Below, piece by piece: positions 7,679 through 49,431 of a stretch of DNA of 64,000 nt. Location: assembly GCA_046350615.1 (NCBI GenBank), contig JAXMAA010000001.1, positions 8,480 to 72,479 of the forward strand, read 5' to 3'. Both the position numbers and the translations under genes were made by a program. The first letter of the stretch is position 1. Each line of letters starts with the position of its first letter. Under the pieces are notes generated by a model that did not search any database, was not told the origin of the DNA, and was given only the letters and a program-made list of their open reading frames with translations. The DNA is from Candidatus Saccharimonadales bacterium. GTDB lineage: Bacteria; Patescibacteriota; Saccharimonadia; Saccharimonadales; UBA7683.

Positions 7679-8536
7679 ATGAAAATCAATAAAGTTACGA
7701 AACAACGTAAGCAGTATCCGGCCTATTTGCTGGAAATCTCATCTGTTCCAAAACAGTTATTTTATCTTGGCGAGCCGCCTGAAGCCTATCTGCCTGCAGT
7801 AACCATTGTTGGTAGTCGCAAGCTCTCGCCGTACGGCCGAGAGGTGACGTACCAGTTGGCATACGACCTAGCAAAACAAGGAGTCTCCGTTATTAGTGGC
7901 CTTGCCTTAGGAGCTGACGGAGTGGCGCACCAAGCCGCAATTGATGCTGGCGGCAGAACAATTGCCGTTCTTGCCAATGGGCTCGATGAGATCTACCCGG
8001 CATCGCACCGAAATTTAGCCATTGAGATCTTGAAAAAGGGCGGCACCATCATGAGTGAATACCCAACCGGCACGCCATCACTCAAGCATCACTTCATCGC
8101 TCGTAATCGTATTGTTTCCGGGCTTTCAGATATGGTAATTATCACTGAGGCAGCCGAGGCCAGCGGCTCGCTTGTAACGGCCAATTTTGCGCTTGAACAA
8201 AACAAACTCGTTGGCGCAGTACCGGGCAATATTACCAATCCGCTCAGTATCGGCACTAATACCTTGATAAAAAGTGGTGCTCAGCTTATTACTTCTGCCC
8301 AAGATGTGCTTAATGCACTCGGCATTCAGGCTGAAGAAAAAGTGCGCCAAGAGGTATTTGGAGATACCGCCGAAGAACAAGCAATCATCGACCTTATGAA
8401 GCAAGGTATAACAGAGATGGACCAGCTCCAACAGCAAAGCAATCTCGACCCAGCCATATTCAGCCAAACCCTCACTATGCTCGAAATCTCCGGCAAAATC
8501 CGCCCCTTGGGCGCAGCCCATTGGACACTTAATTAA
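7679..8536 (+). CDS. dprA: DNA processing protein DprA (Smf)
   Basis: GSRKLSPYG...SGLALGADGVAHQAA...IAVLANGLDEIYP...SGSLVTA core with a C-terminal winged-helix-like tail. Confidence 0.9.
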   Translation: MKINKVTKQRKQYPAYLLEISSVPKQLFYLGEPPEAYLPAVTIVGSRKLSPYGREVTYQLAYDLAKQGVSVISGLALGADGVAHQAAIDAGGRTIAVLANGLDEIYPASHRNLAIEILKKGGTIMSEYPTGTPSLKHHFIARNRIVSGLSDMVIITEAAEASGSLVTANFALEQNKLVGAVPGNITNPLSIGTNTLIKSGAQLITSAQDVLNALGIQAEEKVRQEVFGDTAEEQAIIDLMKQGITEMDQLQQQSNLDPAIFSQTLTMLEISGKIRPLGAAHWTLN

Positions 8537-8632: not shown

Positions 8633-9004
8633 TCAACTTAGATATTTCTGTATACGCTGCTGATCTTCACGGTTTTTAACATTCTTAGCGTATAGCTCAA
8701 TAAATGTTACAGTGCCCTCGCTTATGACGGCTATAAATACCAATCGAAGCTTGCCACTCATGGAGCGCGTTTCGGTATCCAATCGCATTTTTATAACTTC
8801 ATGTGTCTGTGACTGGTGTAAGATTGTGGCTCGCTTGCCATCAAAGAACAGTGATCGATATTTTTTGAGCTCCTCATCACCTCCAGACACATATAACTGC
8901 TCTATAAGCGCATAGACGGGTTTTAGATCGGACTTTAGGGTTCGCACCTTCTTGCCAAGTGCTTTTATATCTTTTTTAAACTCCGGGCTCTCATTAAAGT
9001 TCAT
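8633..9004 (-). CDS. Candidate toxin, RelE/ParE-fold-like, partner of the Panacea antitoxin
   Basis: Overlaps the upstream antitoxin gene by 11 nt. The C-terminal pattern KMRLD..SGKLRLVFIAV..EGTVTFIELYAKNVK resembles the RelE/ParE beta-core. Confidence 0.5.
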   Translation of the reverse strand: MNFNESPEFKKDIKALGKKVRTLKSDLKPVYALIEQLYVSGGDEELKKYRSLFFDGKRATILHQSQTHEVIKMRLDTETRSMSGKLRLVFIAVISEGTVTFIELYAKNVKNREDQQRIQKYLS

Positions 9005-9785
9005 CTTCTGGCTCGGTGACAGCAGTTAGTTTGGTACGGTAAAACACATAACGGTAATCTAGAGGTTTGCCCTGACCCGCCACCACCCATGGCGTATCAT
9101 AGTGGGATAGTTCTGTTAACTCCTTGGCCGTCTTGTCACTTAGTCGTGCAAGAGTTTCGTCTATATGTCTGAGTTCGCGTGCAGATAGGCCATCAAATGG
9201 TACTGGTTTTGTTGGCAAGTACTTCTTCTGCTTGTTCTTGAAGAAATTGGTTTCAACAACCTCAAGCTCGCCTTTGGTCTTCATGCCCTCTACGACACTC
9301 TTGAATTCTGCTACAGGTGATGGACCGTAGTGGTTATGAATGTAAGTCAAACCGGTTATGGACTTACCATGTTTTTCGTAGTAATCAAAATCTATGAAGT
9401 ATAGCAGTTTGTATAGAACGGTTTCACCAACATTTGGCTTAGCACCGACTTTTTCCAAAACGTAGGCAAGCACTTCGCGCAATTTATTGTGGTCAACAAT
9501 TTGTATCGTTTCTCTGGGCTCTATACTTGGTTTGCTGAAACTGGTTGGTTCGACAGCTTGTTCTGTCGGTAGCTTACCGGTAATTAAATCTGATGGAGAA
9601 ATCTGATAAAACTCAGCAATGTCGTTAATCTGGCTTAAATCTGGCTGGCGTTTGCCGGCCTCTAAGTTGGCGTAGGTTGCCCGCGCCATGCGTAGTTTAT
9701 TTGCTACGTCTTGCTGGCTCAGGCCAGCATTGTCGCGCAGTGCTGCTATTGTCTTGCTGAAATCCATGAGGAACCTTTCTTTCAT
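8994..9785 (-). CDS. XRE-HTH plus Panacea (DUF4065/SocA-like) domain antitoxin
   Basis: N-terminal HTH LRDNAGLSQQDVANKLRMARATYANLEAGKRQP. C-terminal VLYKLLYFIDFDYYEKHGKSITGLTYIHNHYGPSP is typical of DUF4065. Confidence 0.75.
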   Translation of the reverse strand: MKERFLMDFSKTIAALRDNAGLSQQDVANKLRMARATYANLEAGKRQPDLSQINDIAEFYQISPSDLITGKLPTEQAVEPTSFSKPSIEPRETIQIVDHNKLREVLAYVLEKVGAKPNVGETVLYKLLYFIDFDYYEKHGKSITGLTYIHNHYGPSPVAEFKSVVEGMKTKGELEVVETNFFKNKQKKYLPTKPVPFDGLSARELRHIDETLARLSDKTAKELTELSHYDTPWVVAGQGKPLDYRYVFYRTKLTAVTEPEDEL

Positions 9786-13300: not shown

Positions 13301-13394
13301 GTATTTTTTCTCCTATATGTATATATAAAAGAAGAGAAAGTAAAAGTAAAGAATTAACAGAGGTGATAGCAAGAATAAAATACCATGTGCTTAG

Positions 13395-14456
13395 TGGGGA
13401 TTTTAGACTACCCTGGAAGCTCGTATTGTAGGAGTGCGCTATACTGTTTGGTATGGCAAAACAACCCCGTGAATGACGATCAACGCAGATTTCTTGATAA
13501 CCTGCCGGATGATCAGGTAAATGAGAATGCTGAGCAAAAGCTCGACAAAGCTATTGCACGCGCCGCGCAGCAGTCGCAATCAAAACAGGAAAAACCGGAA
13601 CCTGCCGATGGTTATAGCGATATACAAACTCGTTCAGATACAGCTGGAGATACTTCCGACTAACGCAGTGATAAGTACCATCCATGGAGCGTTTCAGTTG
13701 TGACCAAAAGCCCTCAATAGTGTTGGTATGCACGGCTCCACGACCATACTCACCAATACTGTGATTCACGCTATCGTGGTAGTAGCCGATACGGTGCACC
13801 GTTCGGTAGACTCGAGCCTGGTCGCTATATACCACTGAGCCAGGTGCTATGCCAGACTGCAAGCGTGGCAGTAGTACCCGAGCGCCAGCACTGCGCACAT
13901 GTTCGGCTTTGACTTTACCACCACGTTCGACCATACCAAAGACAATGGCTTTATTCTGCACGGTGACATTCTTGCCCCGTTCACGGCCGCCTATGTAGGT
14001 TTCATCAGTTTCAACAATGCCAGACAAAGAAGTGTTGCTATCGAGCATCAAGGTGCGTACCTGCTTGGCAATCCGCCAAGCAGTTTTGTAGGTCACGCCC
14101 AGATGGCGTTCCACTTCTTTGGCCGAGACGCCGTTCTTAGCGACTGAGAACAAGAAGATGACGTAGAACCAGTCTTTCAGCGGTGTCGACGACTTATGGA
14201 AGATGGTATTAGCTAACGGATGAATCTGATTACCACAGTCTTTACACTCGTAGCACTTACGATTCCGAACTCGGTAATAGCTGGGATCAGCGACCCCGCA
14301 CTTGGGGCAAGCGGGCATCTGTCCATAGGCCAGGTCAAACATATATTCCAAACAAGCAGTATCATCTGGGAAGCGTTCGTTGAATTGCTTAACCGTAAAC
14401 CTCATACTTACAGTGTATCACAGAGGTTACATGTTGTAAAGGGATAATCGTCCCCA
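13395..14456 (-). mobile_element. IS1595-family insertion sequence (ends uncertain)
   Basis: Contains the transposase gene. Only a weak candidate terminal inverted repeat was found (TGGGGA at 13395, TCCCCA at 14451), and no target-site duplication was found. Confidence 0.45.
13551..14405 (-). CDS. IS1595-family (ISXO2-like) DDE transposase with N-terminal zinc ribbon
   Basis: CPKCG...CKDCG zinc ribbon, HTH GVSAKEVERHLGVTYKTAWR, VETDETYIGG and the later D/E positions typical of IS1595. Confidence 0.85.
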   Translation of the reverse strand: MRFTVKQFNERFPDDTACLEYMFDLAYGQMPACPKCGVADPSYYRVRNRKCYECKDCGNQIHPLANTIFHKSSTPLKDWFYVIFLFSVAKNGVSAKEVERHLGVTYKTAWRIAKQVRTLMLDSNTSLSGIVETDETYIGGRERGKNVTVQNKAIVFGMVERGGKVKAEHVRSAGARVLLPRLQSGIAPGSVVYSDQARVYRTVHRIGYYHDSVNHSIGEYGRGAVHTNTIEGFWSQLKRSMDGTYHCVSRKYLQLYLNEFVYRYNHRQVPVFPVLIATAARRVQ

Positions 14457-14499
14457 ACATTAATTGATTATTTTTAATATACATGTTTAAATATAATTT

Positions 14500-15703: not shown

Positions 15704-18088
15704 ATGAGCAAAAATAATCTTGTTATTGTAGAGAGCCCGGCTAAGGCGAAAACTATCGAGAAGTATCTTGGTAGTGACTTTAAAGTGATGTCTTCGGTTG
15801 GGCACATCCGTTCAATTGCCAAAAAAACTAAAGATGGCAAAGAGGCAATTGATGTAAAAAACGGTTTTGAAACTGTATACGAGATTGATCCGGATAAAAA
15901 GAAGGTCATCACCGAGCTAAAAAAAGCCGTCAAAGAAACGCAGGCTGTTTGGCTAGCAACTGATGAAGACCGTGAGGGTGAGGCAATTGCCTGGCATTTG
16001 TGTGAGGTCCTGAAACTTGATCCGAAGACCACCAAGCGGATTGTGTTTCATGAAATCACCAAAGGAGCGATTGAAGAGGCGATTAAAAATCCGCGGTACG
16101 TAGATATGAACCTCGTACATGCCCAGCAAGCACGGCAGATTTTAGATAGGATCGTTGGCTTTGAGCTCTCACCAGTCGTCTGGCAGAAGGTGCCAGGTGG
16201 TAAATCTGCTGGCCGAGTGCAATCACCGGCTGTTCGATTGCTTGTGGAGCGTGAGCGTGAAATTGAAAGTTTTGAAGGTAGCTTTCAGTTTAAAGTTACT
16301 GCTGAGTTTATGCATAATGGCGACCTTGTTAAGGCCGAGCTACCACAGCGTTTTGATACCGAAAAAGAGGCTCAAGAGTTCTTAGAAAGCCTCAAAAACG
16401 CTTCATTTACAGTAGGTAGCGTTGAAACTACTCCTGGCACTCGTAACCCTTCAGCGCCGTTCACTACCAGCACCCTGCAGCAAGATGCCAACAGTAGGCT
16501 CGGTTTTAGCGCCAAAGCCACCATGGCAGCCGCCCAGAAGCTTTACCAAGAGGGTAAAATCACCTACATGCGTACTGATTCGGTCAATCTAAGCAGCCAA
16601 GCTTTGGCCCAAATGACTGAGTTTATCAAAAAAGAGTACGGCGAGAAGTATCATCAATTCAGAACCTTCAAAACCAAGAATTCGAGCGCACAGGAGGCTC
16701 ACGAAGCCATACGCCCAACAGATGTGAAAACCACCTCTGCCAGTAGTGATAGCTACAACCAGAAGCTCTACGAACTAATCCGAAATCGCACCCTAGCAAG
16801 CCAGATGGCGCCTGCTAAACTGGAAAAGACTACAGTGAGCATTATAATTTCAACCAGCAAATACATCTTTGAAGCTAAAGGTGAGGTGATTTTATTTGAT
16901 GGCTTCCTGAGAGTATATGGCGGCAGCAAAAAAGACCCTGAGATTTTACCAGCACTCGTTGCGGACGATCGGCTGGAGCTAGAAATTGCATCTGCTCGCC
17001 AAATATTTGCCCGTCCACCAGCACGCTACACCGAAGGCTCGCTGGTTAAAAAACTTGAAGATCTTGGCATCGGCCGCCCATCCACCTACGCTACGATCAT
17101 CAATACAGTACAAGTACGAGGCTATGCAGAAAAAGGTGAAAGTGAAGGCGAACCACGCGATGCAATCGTTTTATCATACGTGCCATCCGGTCATTCTGAA
17201 CTTGTTTCAGGATCTACAAACGCCCAAGAGCAGATTCCGAAACAAGTTCGGAATGGCATCGTGCGTGAAGTTGTGCAAGAAAAAACCGGCTCAGATAGGG
17301 GCAAACTAGTACCGACTGCTGCTGGAAAAGTTCTCAACAACTTTCTAGTAGATCACTTTGACCAAGTGGTAGACTATGGTTTTACGGCTGCTGTAGAGGA
17401 AGAATTTGATCAAATTGCTGCTAATAAGTTGGCTCGTAATAAGATGTTAAACGAGTTTTATGATCCGTTTCACAAATTGATTGAAAACTCCGGCAGCATT
17501 GACCGCTCAACTGTCGCCCAAGCACGCGAGATAGGGGTACACCCTAAAACCGGAAAACCGATTTTAGCTCGATTTGGACGCTTTGGCCCCATGCTGCAGC
17601 ACGGTGCGACTGAAGATAAAGAGGCAAAACCGCAATTTGCGCCCCTTCCAAAAGGCGCAAAGCTTGAAACCGTCACGCTCGAGGAGGCCCTAAAAGCCTT
17701 CGAGCTGCCGCGAACCGTTGGCCAAACTGAAGATGGCAAAGAAATCAAAGCGAATATTGGCCGTTTTGGGCCTTATATTCAAGTGGAGAAGCTGTTTGTA
17801 AGTATTAAACCACTCGACCCGCACACAATCACACTCGAGGAGGCAAAAGAGCTCTACGCCGCTAAATTAAAGGCTGAGGCAGAGAAAAATATTGCCGATT
17901 TTGGCGATGGTATCAAAGTGTTAAACGGACGGTTCGGCCCCTACATAACCGACGGTACCAAAAATGCCAAAATTCCAAAAGACACCGACCCCAAGAAGGT
18001 TACCCACGAAGAAGCCAAAAAGCTCCTCGCCGAAGCCCCAGCAAAAGGCAAGCGCACCTTCAAGCGCCGTACTTCTAAAAAGAAATGA
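15704..18088 (+). CDS. topA: DNA topoisomerase I
   Basis: TOPRIM LVIVESPAKAKTIEKYLG, DEDREGE, active-site YMRTDS. The C-terminus has three GRFGPY-type repeats and a basic tail instead of Cys4 zinc fingers. Ends with TGA. Confidence 0.95.
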   Translation: MSKNNLVIVESPAKAKTIEKYLGSDFKVMSSVGHIRSIAKKTKDGKEAIDVKNGFETVYEIDPDKKKVITELKKAVKETQAVWLATDEDREGEAIAWHLCEVLKLDPKTTKRIVFHEITKGAIEEAIKNPRYVDMNLVHAQQARQILDRIVGFELSPVVWQKVPGGKSAGRVQSPAVRLLVEREREIESFEGSFQFKVTAEFMHNGDLVKAELPQRFDTEKEAQEFLESLKNASFTVGSVETTPGTRNPSAPFTTSTLQQDANSRLGFSAKATMAAAQKLYQEGKITYMRTDSVNLSSQALAQMTEFIKKEYGEKYHQFRTFKTKNSSAQEAHEAIRPTDVKTTSASSDSYNQKLYELIRNRTLASQMAPAKLEKTTVSIIISTSKYIFEAKGEVILFDGFLRVYGGSKKDPEILPALVADDRLELEIASARQIFARPPARYTEGSLVKKLEDLGIGRPSTYATIINTVQVRGYAEKGESEGEPRDAIVLSYVPSGHSELVSGSTNAQEQIPKQVRNGIVREVVQEKTGSDRGKLVPTAAGKVLNNFLVDHFDQVVDYGFTAAVEEEFDQIAANKLARNKMLNEFYDPFHKLIENSGSIDRSTVAQAREIGVHPKTGKPILARFGRFGPMLQHGATEDKEAKPQFAPLPKGAKLETVTLEEALKAFELPRTVGQTEDGKEIKANIGRFGPYIQVEKLFVSIKPLDPHTITLEEAKELYAAKLKAEAEKNIADFGDGIKVLNGRFGPYITDGTKNAKIPKDTDPKKVTHEEAKKLLAEAPAKGKRTFKRRTSKKK

Positions 18089-18163
18089 TCTGCCAAAGGC
18101 AGATACAACCGCCCCGCCTACTCAAGAACCGAGAGAGCCAAGCCTTGTTGTACCCTGCGAGCC

Positions 18164-18560
18164 GAGGATGTCTGAGGCCTGATGTAATCAGGCCGAGTTC
18201 CGCAGGCTCCAGAGTATGACAAGGTTTGGCGACCATCGTGCTTTTTGAATCTAGGCGGTGCTTTTGTTTTACTTTTGGCAGCAAAAGTAATGAAAGAAGA
18301 GTATAAGATAGTATCTCTAGGTATTTCTCCTTACCACTTTTGGCAGCAAAAGTGGAGCAAAACTGCCAACCAGAACTCACCAAGACGATGTTACGAGCAG
18401 TCAGTACCTCTCGGGCTGCTGCGGAACTCGCTCTCCTTGTTCGCTCAGACATCCTCACAGCGCCGGGAGCTACTAACTGCTCTCCACTCGGTTGGATCGA
18501 TGGTTGGGTGGGCTGCAGCGGCACAGGAGAGTCTTGCTGTTTTGGGTATTCTCATTTCAG
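18164..18560. ncRNA. Unknown conserved structured intergenic element, copy 1
   Basis: Shares perfect blocks with 48905-49185: a 23-mer at 18366-18388, an 11-mer at 18419-18429, an 8-mer at 18449-18456 and a 27-mer at 18482-18508. The hairpin ACTTTTG-GCAG-CAAAAGT occurs twice (18271, 18336). The strand is unresolved. Confidence 0.4.
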
Positions 18561-18818
18561 ATTTGCTTGCCCACCGTAGCTTTAGCGAAGGCGGATTTAG
18601 TATTTATTTGTATTTTGGTGCTTGGAATTTGAGATTACATCCGTAAATATGCTTATTATTTACTGCTTTTGACAAGCATAAAAGGTTACATCTAGTGTGT
18701 TCATGTATTTGGAATACCTGCTATTTAGTGCTATAATTTGTGCATATACGAGAAAACGTATTGACTTTCAAAAATATATGTATTAAAATATGGTAAATCC
18801 ACAATAAATTAAGTTAAT

Positions 18819-48221: not shown

Positions 48222-48704
48222 TCAATACTTATAGAGGTACAGGGCGCCCTGAACGGCTTTTGGCTTCTTGTTAGGAATTTGAAACGTATAACTGACCAGT
48301 TGACTGCCCTTTTTTAGTTCTTTTGAAAGTTTGGCGTCGAGCTTTGGCATGTATTTATCCAGCAAAAAGACGAATACGCCTTTGGTCTCTGGCGACAGAG
48401 TAATCTTCCAGAAGTTTTTACAGCGCACTGTAACTAAATCTCGAACCTTCCGAGTGCGCCACACGGCAACTGCCCATACAAACGGATTTAGTTCGTAACC
48501 GTAGCAGCGAAGACCGCGCCGCGCCGCAGCCACCAAAAGTGCGCCGTCACCGCAGCCAAGATCAACAAACACCTCACCCTCTTTAAGGCCCAGCATATCG
48601 AGCGCTTGCTCCGCCTGCTCGCGCCGCGTTGGCAAATACGGCGCGCCGTAAAGCAGCACGAAAGCAAATGGCAGAACAATCAAGCATAGCGCCAGCCAAA
48701 TCAT
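48222..48704 (-). CDS. Class I SAM-dependent methyltransferase with N-terminal TM
   Basis: Motif I VFVDLGCGDGALLV. The start is taken at MIWLAL (48704). Confidence 0.7.
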   Translation of the reverse strand: MIWLALCLIVLPFAFVLLYGAPYLPTRREQAEQALDMLGLKEGEVFVDLGCGDGALLVAAARRGLRCYGYELNPFVWAVAVWRTRKVRDLVTVRCKNFWKITLSPETKGVFVFLLDKYMPKLDAKLSKELKKGSQLVSYTFQIPNKKPKAVQGALYLYKY

Positions 48705-48904
48705 ACAACCACCTTTTTTAAATCCAGATAACCCTCGCAAAGCGAGTCAGCCAGCCTCCACCCCCTCACAAAAACCCGAATACCGGAAGCTTTGTTTTTC
48801 CGAGTCAAGGAGCAACTTGCCCGAACCCATAACTTTACACTTTGTGAGGGATGCTTGTCATTGTTGCGACGCGGAAAAAACAAAGCTGGAGGTATATCGA
48901 GCTT

Positions 48905-49185
48905 TTGGTGTCGGGGGTGCAGTTTTGTTTTGCTTTTGCTGCCAAAAGCGAAGAGAGAAACACGGTTTTTTATACCCCTACTTTTTGATAGCAAAAAGAT
49001 AGCAAAAACTACCAACCAGAACTCACCAAGACGAAGCTTCGTACCACACTTTGTTCTTGGGTCACTGCGGAACTCAGCCTGATTAACATCAGGCTTCAAA
49101 CATCCTCGCGACGCCAGGAACAAAGCATGGTGCTCCACTCGGTTGGATCGATGGTTGGGGAGCTGCATCGGCAGATGGTAGTCGA
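48905..49185. ncRNA. Unknown conserved structured intergenic element, copy 2
   Basis: Perfect blocks shared with copy 1 at 49012-49034, 49065-49075, 49100-49107 and 49133-49159. The hairpins GCTTTTG-CTGC-CAAAAGC (48932) and CTTTTTG-ATAG-CAAAAAG (48981) covary with those of copy 1. Confidence 0.4.
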
Positions 49186-49227
49186 TTCTAAATTCTATAG
49201 AGCTTGTATCGAGCACCGTCTGTTTGA

Positions 49228-49431
49228 TCATGGGGTGAATTTTTGTTTGATGATTTCTACTTGGTTTTTGGCATCTTTCAGCTGAGCTTCTAGCTCCTGC
49301 GAAAGCTTCAAGGCCTGCTCGTATTTTTCAAGCGATTCTTCCACCGTAATTTCTTCAGACTCAAACCAAGCCAGCAAGGCCTCAAGCCGTTCCATCTTCT
49401 GGGCAATTGTGGTTTTTTTACTTTCTGACAT
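49228..49431 (-). CDS. xseB: Exodeoxyribonuclease VII small subunit
   Basis: Small helical protein (LEALLAWFESEEITVEESLEKYEQALKL); overlaps xseA. Confidence 0.85.
   Translation of the reverse strand: MSESKKTTIAQKMERLEALLAWFESEEITVEESLEKYEQALKLSQELEAQLKDAKNQVEIIKQKFTP

Follow-up and report, generated by a model that had tools for sequence, protein, structure and literature searches.

A 64,000-nt stretch of DNA from a Candidatus Saccharimonadales bacterium (assembly GCA_046350615.1, contig JAXMAA010000001.1, positions 8,480 to 72,479; hereafter the window) carries copies of a non-coding repeat that folds on one strand into a long rod, with an invariant asymmetric loop at its apex. A preliminary description, made from the letters of the window, had taken this element for a candidate novel non-coding RNA (ncRNA) present in two copies. 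Its novel, structured and non-coding character stands; it is not, however, private to this genome, being found at at least 240 loci in at least 12 phyla. On balance we favour, with middling confidence, the view that the element is a non-autonomous mobile repeat akin to hairpin-forming doublets of repetitive extragenic palindromes (REPs; the doublets are termed REPINs) or to MITEs (miniature transposable elements with inverted repeats), in which the single-stranded hairpin apex would be read by a putative conserved factor.

Fold and structural strand of the repeat

On its structural strand the unit consists, in order, of a small tail hairpin, a rod of ~145 nt, a U/T tract and an A/T-rich hairpin (H1). 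The window holds three full elements and one remnant, arranged as two head-to-head inverted pairs of ~500 bp each, inserted at ~18088-18590 (pair 1) and 48704-49227 (pair 2), and each pair begins exactly at the upstream gene's stop codon. Copies 1 and 2 had been correctly placed after topA and between xseB (here with xseA) and a gene with a weak methyltransferase match; a sigma70_r4/HARE-HTH gene lies downstream of copy 1. The two copy regions are 74% identical overall, and the blocks that they were said to share are indeed perfect. Block 1 (23 nt) occurs exactly at 18366-18388 and 49012-49034 and block 4 (27 nt) at 18482-18508 and 49133-49159, with 0.00 chance matches for each in 100 shuffles, even when up to three mismatches were allowed. 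The module formed by blocks 2 and 3, CTGCGGAACTC-N-ACATCCTC, is present three times (18419-18456, +; 49065-49107, +; 18164-18205, -), again with none expected by chance. The inverted occurrence had been noticed but assigned to copy 1, with identical flanks of 13 and 12 nt; the flanks are of 11 and 12 nt, and the module belongs to copy 3, a full unit on the opposite strand (18088-18290), equipped with a long stem, a tail hairpin and an upstream hairpin of its own. Copy 4 (48704-48949) is decayed, retaining H1 and the terminal hairpin, and has no core that is detected by a covariance model (R1) with which the three full copies all score (Table 1).

The full rod was aligned from the three window copies and five related copies from Saccharibacteria/Patescibacteria (candidate phyla radiation, CPR), giving a consensus of 57 pairs. 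Across these eight copies 93.2% of the cells are paired, as against 40-47% with the partners slid, and both sides change in 38 of the 57 pairs (covariation score 0.67 versus 0.23 when shuffled). The core and its two closing helices could be compared in 98 distinct sequences from all phyla. Here 96.5% of the cells are paired (28-51% when slid) and double-change cells number 248, against 68 in shuffles; since the letters of the core are set by the search pattern, the evidence in this second test comes from the flanking and apical helices alone. The secondary structure is under selection, with real covariation, and what had been suspected from two copies holds among collected homologues, where covariation lies far above both the shuffled and the slid controls.

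The stretches between the blocks had been called divergent spacers, whereas the stems beside the module are homologous with compensatory changes (CTCTCGGG/CCGGGAG versus TTCTTGGG/CCAGGAA). The upstream hairpins do covary, as claimed, although their assignment needs correction: the two ACTTTTG-GCAG-CAAAAGT hairpins given to copy 1 belong one to copy 3 (18271-18288) and one to copy 1 (18336-18353), and GCTTTTG-CTGC-CAAAAGC (48932-48949), given to copy 2, is part of the decayed copy 4 on the other strand. The suggested pairing of CCAACCA with TGGTTGG is present in the predicted folds. At the apex the layout is constant, namely a 3-bp helix, an asymmetric loop of 5'-(C)UGUYUGA-3' opposite 5'-GAGU-3' (complement strand) and then a variable hairpin. 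Diverged copies recovered by model R1 show covariation in the inner 3-bp helix as well (GGA/UCC, GCA/UGC, GAA/UUC, CAU/AUG), and the apical insert ranges from 7 to 35 nt and is not restricted to multiples of three. The rod helices vary freely and the asymmetric apical loop never changes. On inspection, this loop has a tandem G.A beside the apical helix and two further non-canonical pairs between the tandem G.A and the UGU bulge.

Contrary to the orientation adopted at first, the strand that reads from block 1 to block 4 is the poorer folder and its complement is the structural strand. When folded with flanks of three different sizes, the complement was the more stable in 95 of 104, 100 of 104 and 96 of 101 unique elements (p ~1e-17), with a mean folding gain of 6-10 kcal/mol that rises with length. 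Among the non-Watson-Crick cells of well-anchored pairs, 42 read as G-U on the complement (A-C on the other strand) as against 6 in the reverse sense, and they come from many lineages. Both window copies first described follow this rule, the copy 1 rod folding at -67.3 kcal/mol on the - strand and -61.6 on the + strand, and the copy 2 rod at -79.6 (z=-6.6) and -67.1 (z=-4.1), respectively. This bias identifies a functional single strand, be it RNA or DNA.

Several features outside the core recur across phyla: H1, formed by a pyrimidine tract, a loop and a purine tract, with a further purine tract behind it; an internal loop UUAAC/UA; and internal loops with the same sequence on both arms. This second purine tract always lies 4-6 nt after H1 and has the same length (4, 5 or 6 nt), as seen in the window (18334-18363, 48981-49009 and 18263-18290) and at loci L026, L095, L047, L074 and L112. 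In several gammaproteobacterial copies the two tracts are mirror images. H1 with its extra tract could, judging by these letters, be an intramolecular triplex or an alternative-pairing switch; when the triplex idea was examined the tract lengths were found to co-vary, and a comparison of mirror with direct repeats came out at 15 mirror, 13 direct and 20 ties. Each of window copies 1 and 2 also contains the hexamer GAACTC (GAGUUC on the structural strand) twice, once in the core (18419-18429; 49065-49075) and once in block 1 (18366-18388; 49012-49034), and in other lineages the internal loops with identical 5'->3' sequence on both arms read UCGCUCAA and GCGCUGCUCGG. Such dyad-symmetric loops hint at a dimeric binder.

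Distribution and behaviour as a repeat

The pattern CTGCGGAACTC-N(5-35)-TCARACATCCTC was run against 185,579 species-representative genomes, in which we estimate about one chance match by our own arithmetic. It was recovered at at least 120 loci in these genomes and at least 120 in metagenomes, and the 23-base core is letter-identical in at least 12 bacterial phyla, a range that takes in Saccharibacteria and Omnitrophota as well as Bacteroidaceae, Firmicutes and Proteobacteria. The genome matches listed fall in Omnitrophota, Elusimicrobiota, Saccharibacteria/Patescibacteria, Gamma- and Betaproteobacteria, Bacteroidaceae, Cryomorphaceae, Eubacteriales, Phascolarctobacterium, Planctomycetales-labelled bins, Nitrospirales, Syntrophaceae, Aminicenantales and Auribacterota. 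Two carriers, both of the Betaproteobacteria/Gammaproteobacteria group, are in culture (Uliginosibacterium sp. H1 and Aquabacterium soli SJQ9), and one saccharibacterial locus (L082, UBA1050) is syntenic with the window, which an identical XseA assigns to a Saccharimonadales MAG (metagenome-assembled genome). The canonical core was found in none of 2.9 million viral contigs, of which four hold a one-base variant, and exact block 4 had no match in metagenomes. The window pair showed no similarity in annotated plasmid or phage collections, nor did a gammaproteobacterial copy in plasmids or E. coli; of a betaproteobacterial copy, the upstream part only matched two Burkholderiales replicons, in unannotated sequence.

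Within genomes, the unit is a repeat. Single MAGs carry 4-9 or more copies, many of them at contig ends; copies inside one MAG are near-identical and assemblies break at them. Adjacent pairs are inverted in 24 of 24 cases and direct in none, 22 of them being tail-to-tail, with a spacing of 128-189 nt in 19 of these. No family of open reading frames (ORFs) recurs beside the 240 loci (all-against-all comparison of ORFs within ~4 kb, at 120 and then at 240 loci), which answers in the negative the question raised earlier of an association with particular neighbouring genes; only generic families such as response regulators and ABC ATPases recur near loci, at variable positions.

Close relatives of the window differ in whether they carry the insertions. 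At the topA locus, L122, L123 and L128, whose neighbour protein is 86-89% identical, have a spacer of 240-260 nt without the pair; a 97% relative (L121) has copy 1, and its contig ends inside that copy; and L124, L126 and L127 hold unrelated inserts. An alignment of the empty sites at this locus proved too diverged for ends to be defined. At the xseB locus, a 78% relative (L132) has 4 nt between xseB and the methyltransferase gene, as against 524 nt in the window. In L131 a copy-1-type unit occupies the position of window copy 2, which implies movement or conversion between loci. Taken together, the multiple copies, the inverted doublets and the presence or absence in close relatives show that the element behaves as a mobile repeat and not as a single-locus ncRNA gene.

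The insertion sites themselves have some further features. The spacer between topA and the sigma70_r4/HARE-HTH gene (window 18089-18600) is an insertion hot spot in saccharibacterial relatives, where it may be empty or contain a 239-aa ORF, a 107-aa ORF or an unrelated GC-rich segment of 440 nt (L126); a promoter-like region downstream of the hot spot is conserved (TTGGAA-17-TATAAT, TTGACT-17-TAAAAT). Both window pairs begin at the upstream stop codon within ATGATC, at topA ...GAAATGATCTGCC (18081-18093) and xseB ...CCCATGATCAAAC (49225-49236). The methyltransferase start after pair 2 (48698-48706) reads ATGATT, and the empty site of L132 (1750-1775) reads TAG-CGCG-ATGATC. Pair 2 has ATGAT at each of its junctions and pair 1 at its left one, the ends of the window copies being fuzzy, and from these letters ATGAT could be a target, or a duplication, at the stop/start overlap.

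Elsewhere the unit is found in rather different company. In Bacteroidaceae MAGs (L033 1-310, L061, L064 and others) it sits inside a multi-copy element of ~450 bp with 18-bp terminal inverted repeats (TIRs; TATTGGTGTCCGGTAAAA) and TA on both sides. This larger element resembles an IS630/mariner-type MITE, and some copies have internal insertions of 120-190 nt; here the conserved unit can be the cargo of an ordinary MITE. A Comamonas odontotermitis plasmid (NZ_CP083452.1; L125 1500-2090) bears two tail-to-tail units with a diverged core, GCATAACTC-hairpin-TCAAACAGATGC, in an unannotated 800-bp gap between two ABC-transporter substrate-binding genes, and their H1-flanking part weakly resembles the Burkholderia small RNA candidate Bp1_684 (E=0.28). 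In an Elusimicrobiaceae MAG (L015 259-4476) two inverted copies enclose a 4-kb block encoding a DndB-like protein, a MutH-like endonuclease and an N6/N4 DNA methylase, which on its predicted gene content is restriction-modification or defence-type cargo. Finally, in a gammaproteobacterial MAG a near-match to the TwoAYGGAY RNA of the Csr/Rsm clan (L079 927-1048, -; 37.1 bits against a gathering score of 43) lies 160 nt from the element.

Table 1. Position and strand of the parts of the hairpin units in the window
Feature	Position	Strand	Remarks
Copy 3 tail hairpin, ATCTGCCAAAGGCAGAT	18088..18104	+	begins at topA stop codon; counterpart of CTGC-NNN-GGCAG in copies 1 and 2; terminator-like on the - strand (18104->18088; hairpin + T run)
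Copy 3 rod (long imperfect hairpin)	18114..18258	+	structural strand is window +, from consensus fold and pair counts; R1 match 18150-18219, 62.1 bits, E=8e-15
Copy 3 invariant apical core	18164..18205	+	GAGGATGTCTGA-[GGCCTGAT gta ATCAGGCC]-GAGTTCCGCAG
Copy 3 H1 hairpin, TTACTTTTG GCAG CAAAAGTAA	18269..18290	+	TTTTG before H1, 18263-18267; H1 helix (helix 6) covaries
Copy 1 H1 hairpin, CCACTTTTG GCAG CAAAAGTGG, and second purine tract	18334..18363	-	H1 18334-18355; CAAAAC 18358-18363
Copy 1 rod, block 1 to block 4	18366..18508	-	structural strand is window -
Copy 1 invariant apical core	18419..18456	-	apical hairpin only 2 bp; R1 53.0 bits
Copy 1 tail, GCTGCAGCGGCA through ATTCTCATTTC	18512..18559	-	homologous to copy 2 tail; also in relatives L121 and L131
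Copy 4 decayed unit	48704..48949	+	H1 48932-48949; TTTTG 48923-48927; terminal hairpin CTCGCAAAGCGAG; no recognisable core; terminator-like site 48787->48775 on the - strand; terminal sequence matches outer end of L131 copy
Copy 2 H1 hairpin, CTTTTTG ATAG CAAAAAG, and second purine tract	48981..49009	-	H1 48981-48998; CAAAAAC 49003-49009
Copy 2 rod	49012..49159	-	structural strand is window -
Copy 2 invariant apical core	49065..49107	-	8-bp apical hairpin; R1 57.7 bits
Copy 2 tail with CTGCATCGGCAG (49163-49174)	49160..49227	-	reaches xseB stop codon (49228-49230)

Mobile repeat or functional RNA

A core that is letter-identical across phyla, in a covarying, multi-copy hairpin absent from Rfam, points to an unrecognised and apparently conserved molecular partner that reads the core. 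In the mobile repeat that we favour, the unit would spread and be kept as a single-stranded foldback, either as single-stranded DNA or as a transcript of the structural strand. Its invariant apical loop would be the recognition site of a conserved protein supplied in trans, mobilisation would likewise occur in trans, and the inverted doublets would place one correctly oriented unit on each DNA strand. Both the nature of the partner and the active form, DNA or RNA, are points that we infer.

Several observations weigh against such a view. No transposase, REP-associated tyrosine transposase (RAYT), TnpB or reverse transcriptase adjoins any copy at the 240 loci, and the sole transposase in the window belongs to an unrelated IS1595-family element. 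For the window copies, no clean target-site duplication or TIR could be defined. REP and MITE families known so far are each limited to a species or genus, and it is their ends that are best conserved; conservation that is centred on the apex and identical across phyla looks more like that of a functional RNA motif. To judge from their identity copies 1 and 2 are old, yet their blocks have stayed perfect, suggesting selection at the level of the host, or gene conversion, more than a recent transposition. Lastly, the orientation of the units relative to flanking ORFs is only weakly biased.

These points lead to the strongest alternative, to which we would give tentative credence: a family of structured ncRNAs, either trans-acting or embedded in 3' untranslated regions (UTRs) or terminators, whose conserved cellular partner, a protein or an RNA, would be bound by the invariant apical loop, and which would act at the RNA level, for instance as a sponge for proteins, in processing or stability, or as a terminator cassette that works in both directions. 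Its copies would have spread by duplication, by horizontal transfer or as cargo of unrelated MITEs, and the internal position of the Bacteroidaceae unit in a TIR-bounded element fits the last of these. The same explanation accounts for conservation of the apex rather than of the ends, for covarying helices that are shared across phyla, for the strand-specific G-U-type wobble and for the retention of perfect 23- and 27-nt blocks by diverged copies 1 and 2 in a reduced genome of the ~1-Mb class. Moreover, at both window loci the structural strand of the unit next to the upstream gene (copy 3 for topA, copy 2 for xseB) runs in the same sense as that gene, and this unit would therefore be transcribed as a 3' UTR; CPR rods are followed by U tracts (TTTTG) on the structural strand, and the tail hairpins with their T run are terminator-like on the other. 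Against this, no promoter could be assigned on either strand, and orientation is mixed, the upstream gene being co-oriented with the block 1-to-block 4 strand in ~62 cases and opposite in ~32. The element is also dispensable in close relatives and reaches nine or more near-identical, assembly-breaking copies per MAG. The two explanations are not mutually exclusive.

A bolder proposal, which is possible though less likely than not, is that the apical loop 5'-(C)UGUYUGA/GAGU-3' is a new and widespread functional RNA or single-stranded DNA motif (the site of a universal protein, or a ribozyme or guide-type core) borne by rod-shaped non-coding carriers in at least 12 phyla including CPR, which would make the family a new class of element and not another REP or MITE. 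It seems improbable that the element is a viroid- or retrozyme-like unit, borne on rod-shaped non-coding repeats, with the conserved asymmetric loop forming the heart of a novel small self-cleaving ribozyme or of another catalytic or guide RNA. The rod shape, with its invariant 11+12-nt internal loop closed by covarying helices, would suit such a unit, as would the patchy, multi-copy, cross-phylum spread without a linked protein, which resembles the distribution of hammerhead and twister ribozymes, and the tandem G.A by the apical helix is found in many catalytic and protein-binding loops. However, no Rfam ribozyme family matched, even at E<=10, the loop on inspection misfits the hammerhead, hairpin, twister, pistol and hatchet cores, and there is no reverse transcriptase nearby.

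A plain DNA repeat or chance similarity without selection on the folded strand, or a protein-coding remnant, is effectively excluded: ORFs of 133-176 aa do overlap the copies, but the chance expectation is 0, covariation far exceeds the controls, the apical insert ignores the reading frame and, as had been concluded at the outset, the shared blocks lie in different frames (ORFs 18075-18524 and 48701-49231, both -, cross block 4 at offsets of 16 and 72 nt from their starts), with no Pfam match for either ORF and no protein database match for a spurious-ORF translation.

The partner, once found, could define a cross-phylum system for mobilising non-coding repeats, also in reduced CPR genomes, or else a new widespread RNA motif. 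The element is of practical concern as well: MAG assemblies break at it, it gives rise to spurious ORFs, and it flags hot spots of insertion directly behind stop codons. Since Uliginosibacterium sp. H1 and Aquabacterium soli SJQ9 are cultured carriers, the question is directly testable.

Two other features of the window may be recorded here. The IS1595-family insertion sequence spans 13317-14484, has a transposase ORF at 13551-14405 (-) with DDE_Tnp_IS1595 (1.4e-39) and Zn-ribbon domains, and lies between the arms of an imperfect inverted repeat of 17 nt (ATGTATATATAAAAGAA/TTATTTTTAATATACAT), its ends being unrelated to the hairpin repeat. At 8994-9785 (-) an HTH_3 plus SocA/Panacea-domain protein, antitoxin-like, is encoded in this reduced saccharibacterial genome, with dprA near it (7679-8536).

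Relation to known families

The element family is uncatalogued, a structured cross-phylum repeat absent from Rfam, in agreement with the earlier failure to match it to a known RNA. When the whole window was searched against Rfam 15 (4227 models), tRNA-Glu alone passed the gathering threshold, and an ARAGORN scan for tRNA and tmRNA likewise returned tRNA-Glu only. For copy 1 at E<=10 Rfam gave noise only, and 13 related loci together with the Comamonas variant had no match on the element. Literature searches by keyword and by exact core, variant and H1-region strings found no relevant publication; the strings that did match, in the long sequence listings of an Obelisk preprint, are 13-mers shared by chance.

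With regard to intrinsic terminators (a G+C-rich hairpin and a T/U run), the tail hairpins of copies 3 and 4 score as terminator-like on the - strand, copies 1 and 2 being unflagged. A number of individual candidates were set aside. Known self-cleaving ribozymes have no Rfam match here, and by inspection the loop is unlike the hammerhead (CUGANGA...GAAA), hairpin, twister, pistol and hatchet cores. A K-turn needs a 3-nt bulge followed directly by tandem G.A, whereas two non-canonical pairs intervene here. Housekeeping ncRNAs (6S, signal recognition particle RNA, RNase P, tmRNA, Y RNA) do not fit an element that is multi-copy, dispensable in relatives and without an Rfam or ARAGORN match. The resemblance to CsrA-type GGA sites, loop E, boxA, dif, parS, DUS and oriT nic sites is partial only, by eye, and a small leader peptide after H1 was discounted, start codons being frequent there but the ORFs not conserved.

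Among larger systems, the omega-RNAs of HEARO/IscB and IS605-orfB/TnpB elements, including PATEs, are similarly structured, strand-specific, multi-copy and present in many phyla, often without the ORF, and have hairpins near each end without TIRs or target-site duplication. In contrast to these, the present element has no Rfam HEARO or IS605-orfB match, no tnpA, tnpB or iscB beside the 240 loci and no guide-like variable end that we could see. Integron attC sites also have one strand that folds into an imperfect hairpin, recognised by its structure and unpaired bases, and a variable terminal stem-loop. However, they form cassette arrays by intI and conserve only their RYYYAAC/GTTRRRY ends, whereas our units are isolated or in inverted pairs between housekeeping genes, and on reading them the R boxes (the R''/R' core sites) are absent.

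Closer parallels are found among small extragenic repeats. Bacterial MITEs such as Correia/NEMIS, ERIC/IRU, RUP and BOX are non-coding elements of 100-450 bp with intergenic presence or absence and long hairpins, and may carry terminators. In keeping with them, the present family is small, non-coding, multi-copy and polymorphic for presence, with no linked gene. MITEs are, however, confined to a genus or family and have conserved TIRs, whereas here the termini are lineage-specific and the centre universal, and for the window copies no insertion sequence that might be the parent came to light, the ends of the IS1595-family element being unrelated and no transposase lying beside the 240 loci.

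REPs, bacterial interspersed mosaic elements (BIMEs) and REPINs are mobilised by RAYTs, which are IS200/IS605-like Y1 HUH transposases. REPs measure 20-40 nt, are species-specific, are tagged with GTAG or CGTC and are found flanking a RAYT gene, in contrast to a unit of 200-300 nt whose core is identical in at least 12 phyla and whose conserved part is the asymmetric apical loop. No GTAG or CGTC tag was seen in the element sequences inspected, and there was no RAYT/Y1_Tnp-type match among the 47 window ORFs scanned, nor a RAYT beside the 240 loci. The likeness lies instead in form and arrangement: each is a short extragenic palindrome without coding function that folds as a single strand, occurs in many copies just downstream of genes and contains no gene of its own, and the inverted doublets or alternating clusters of REPs have their counterpart in the 24 of 24 inverted pairs found here, those of both window loci included.

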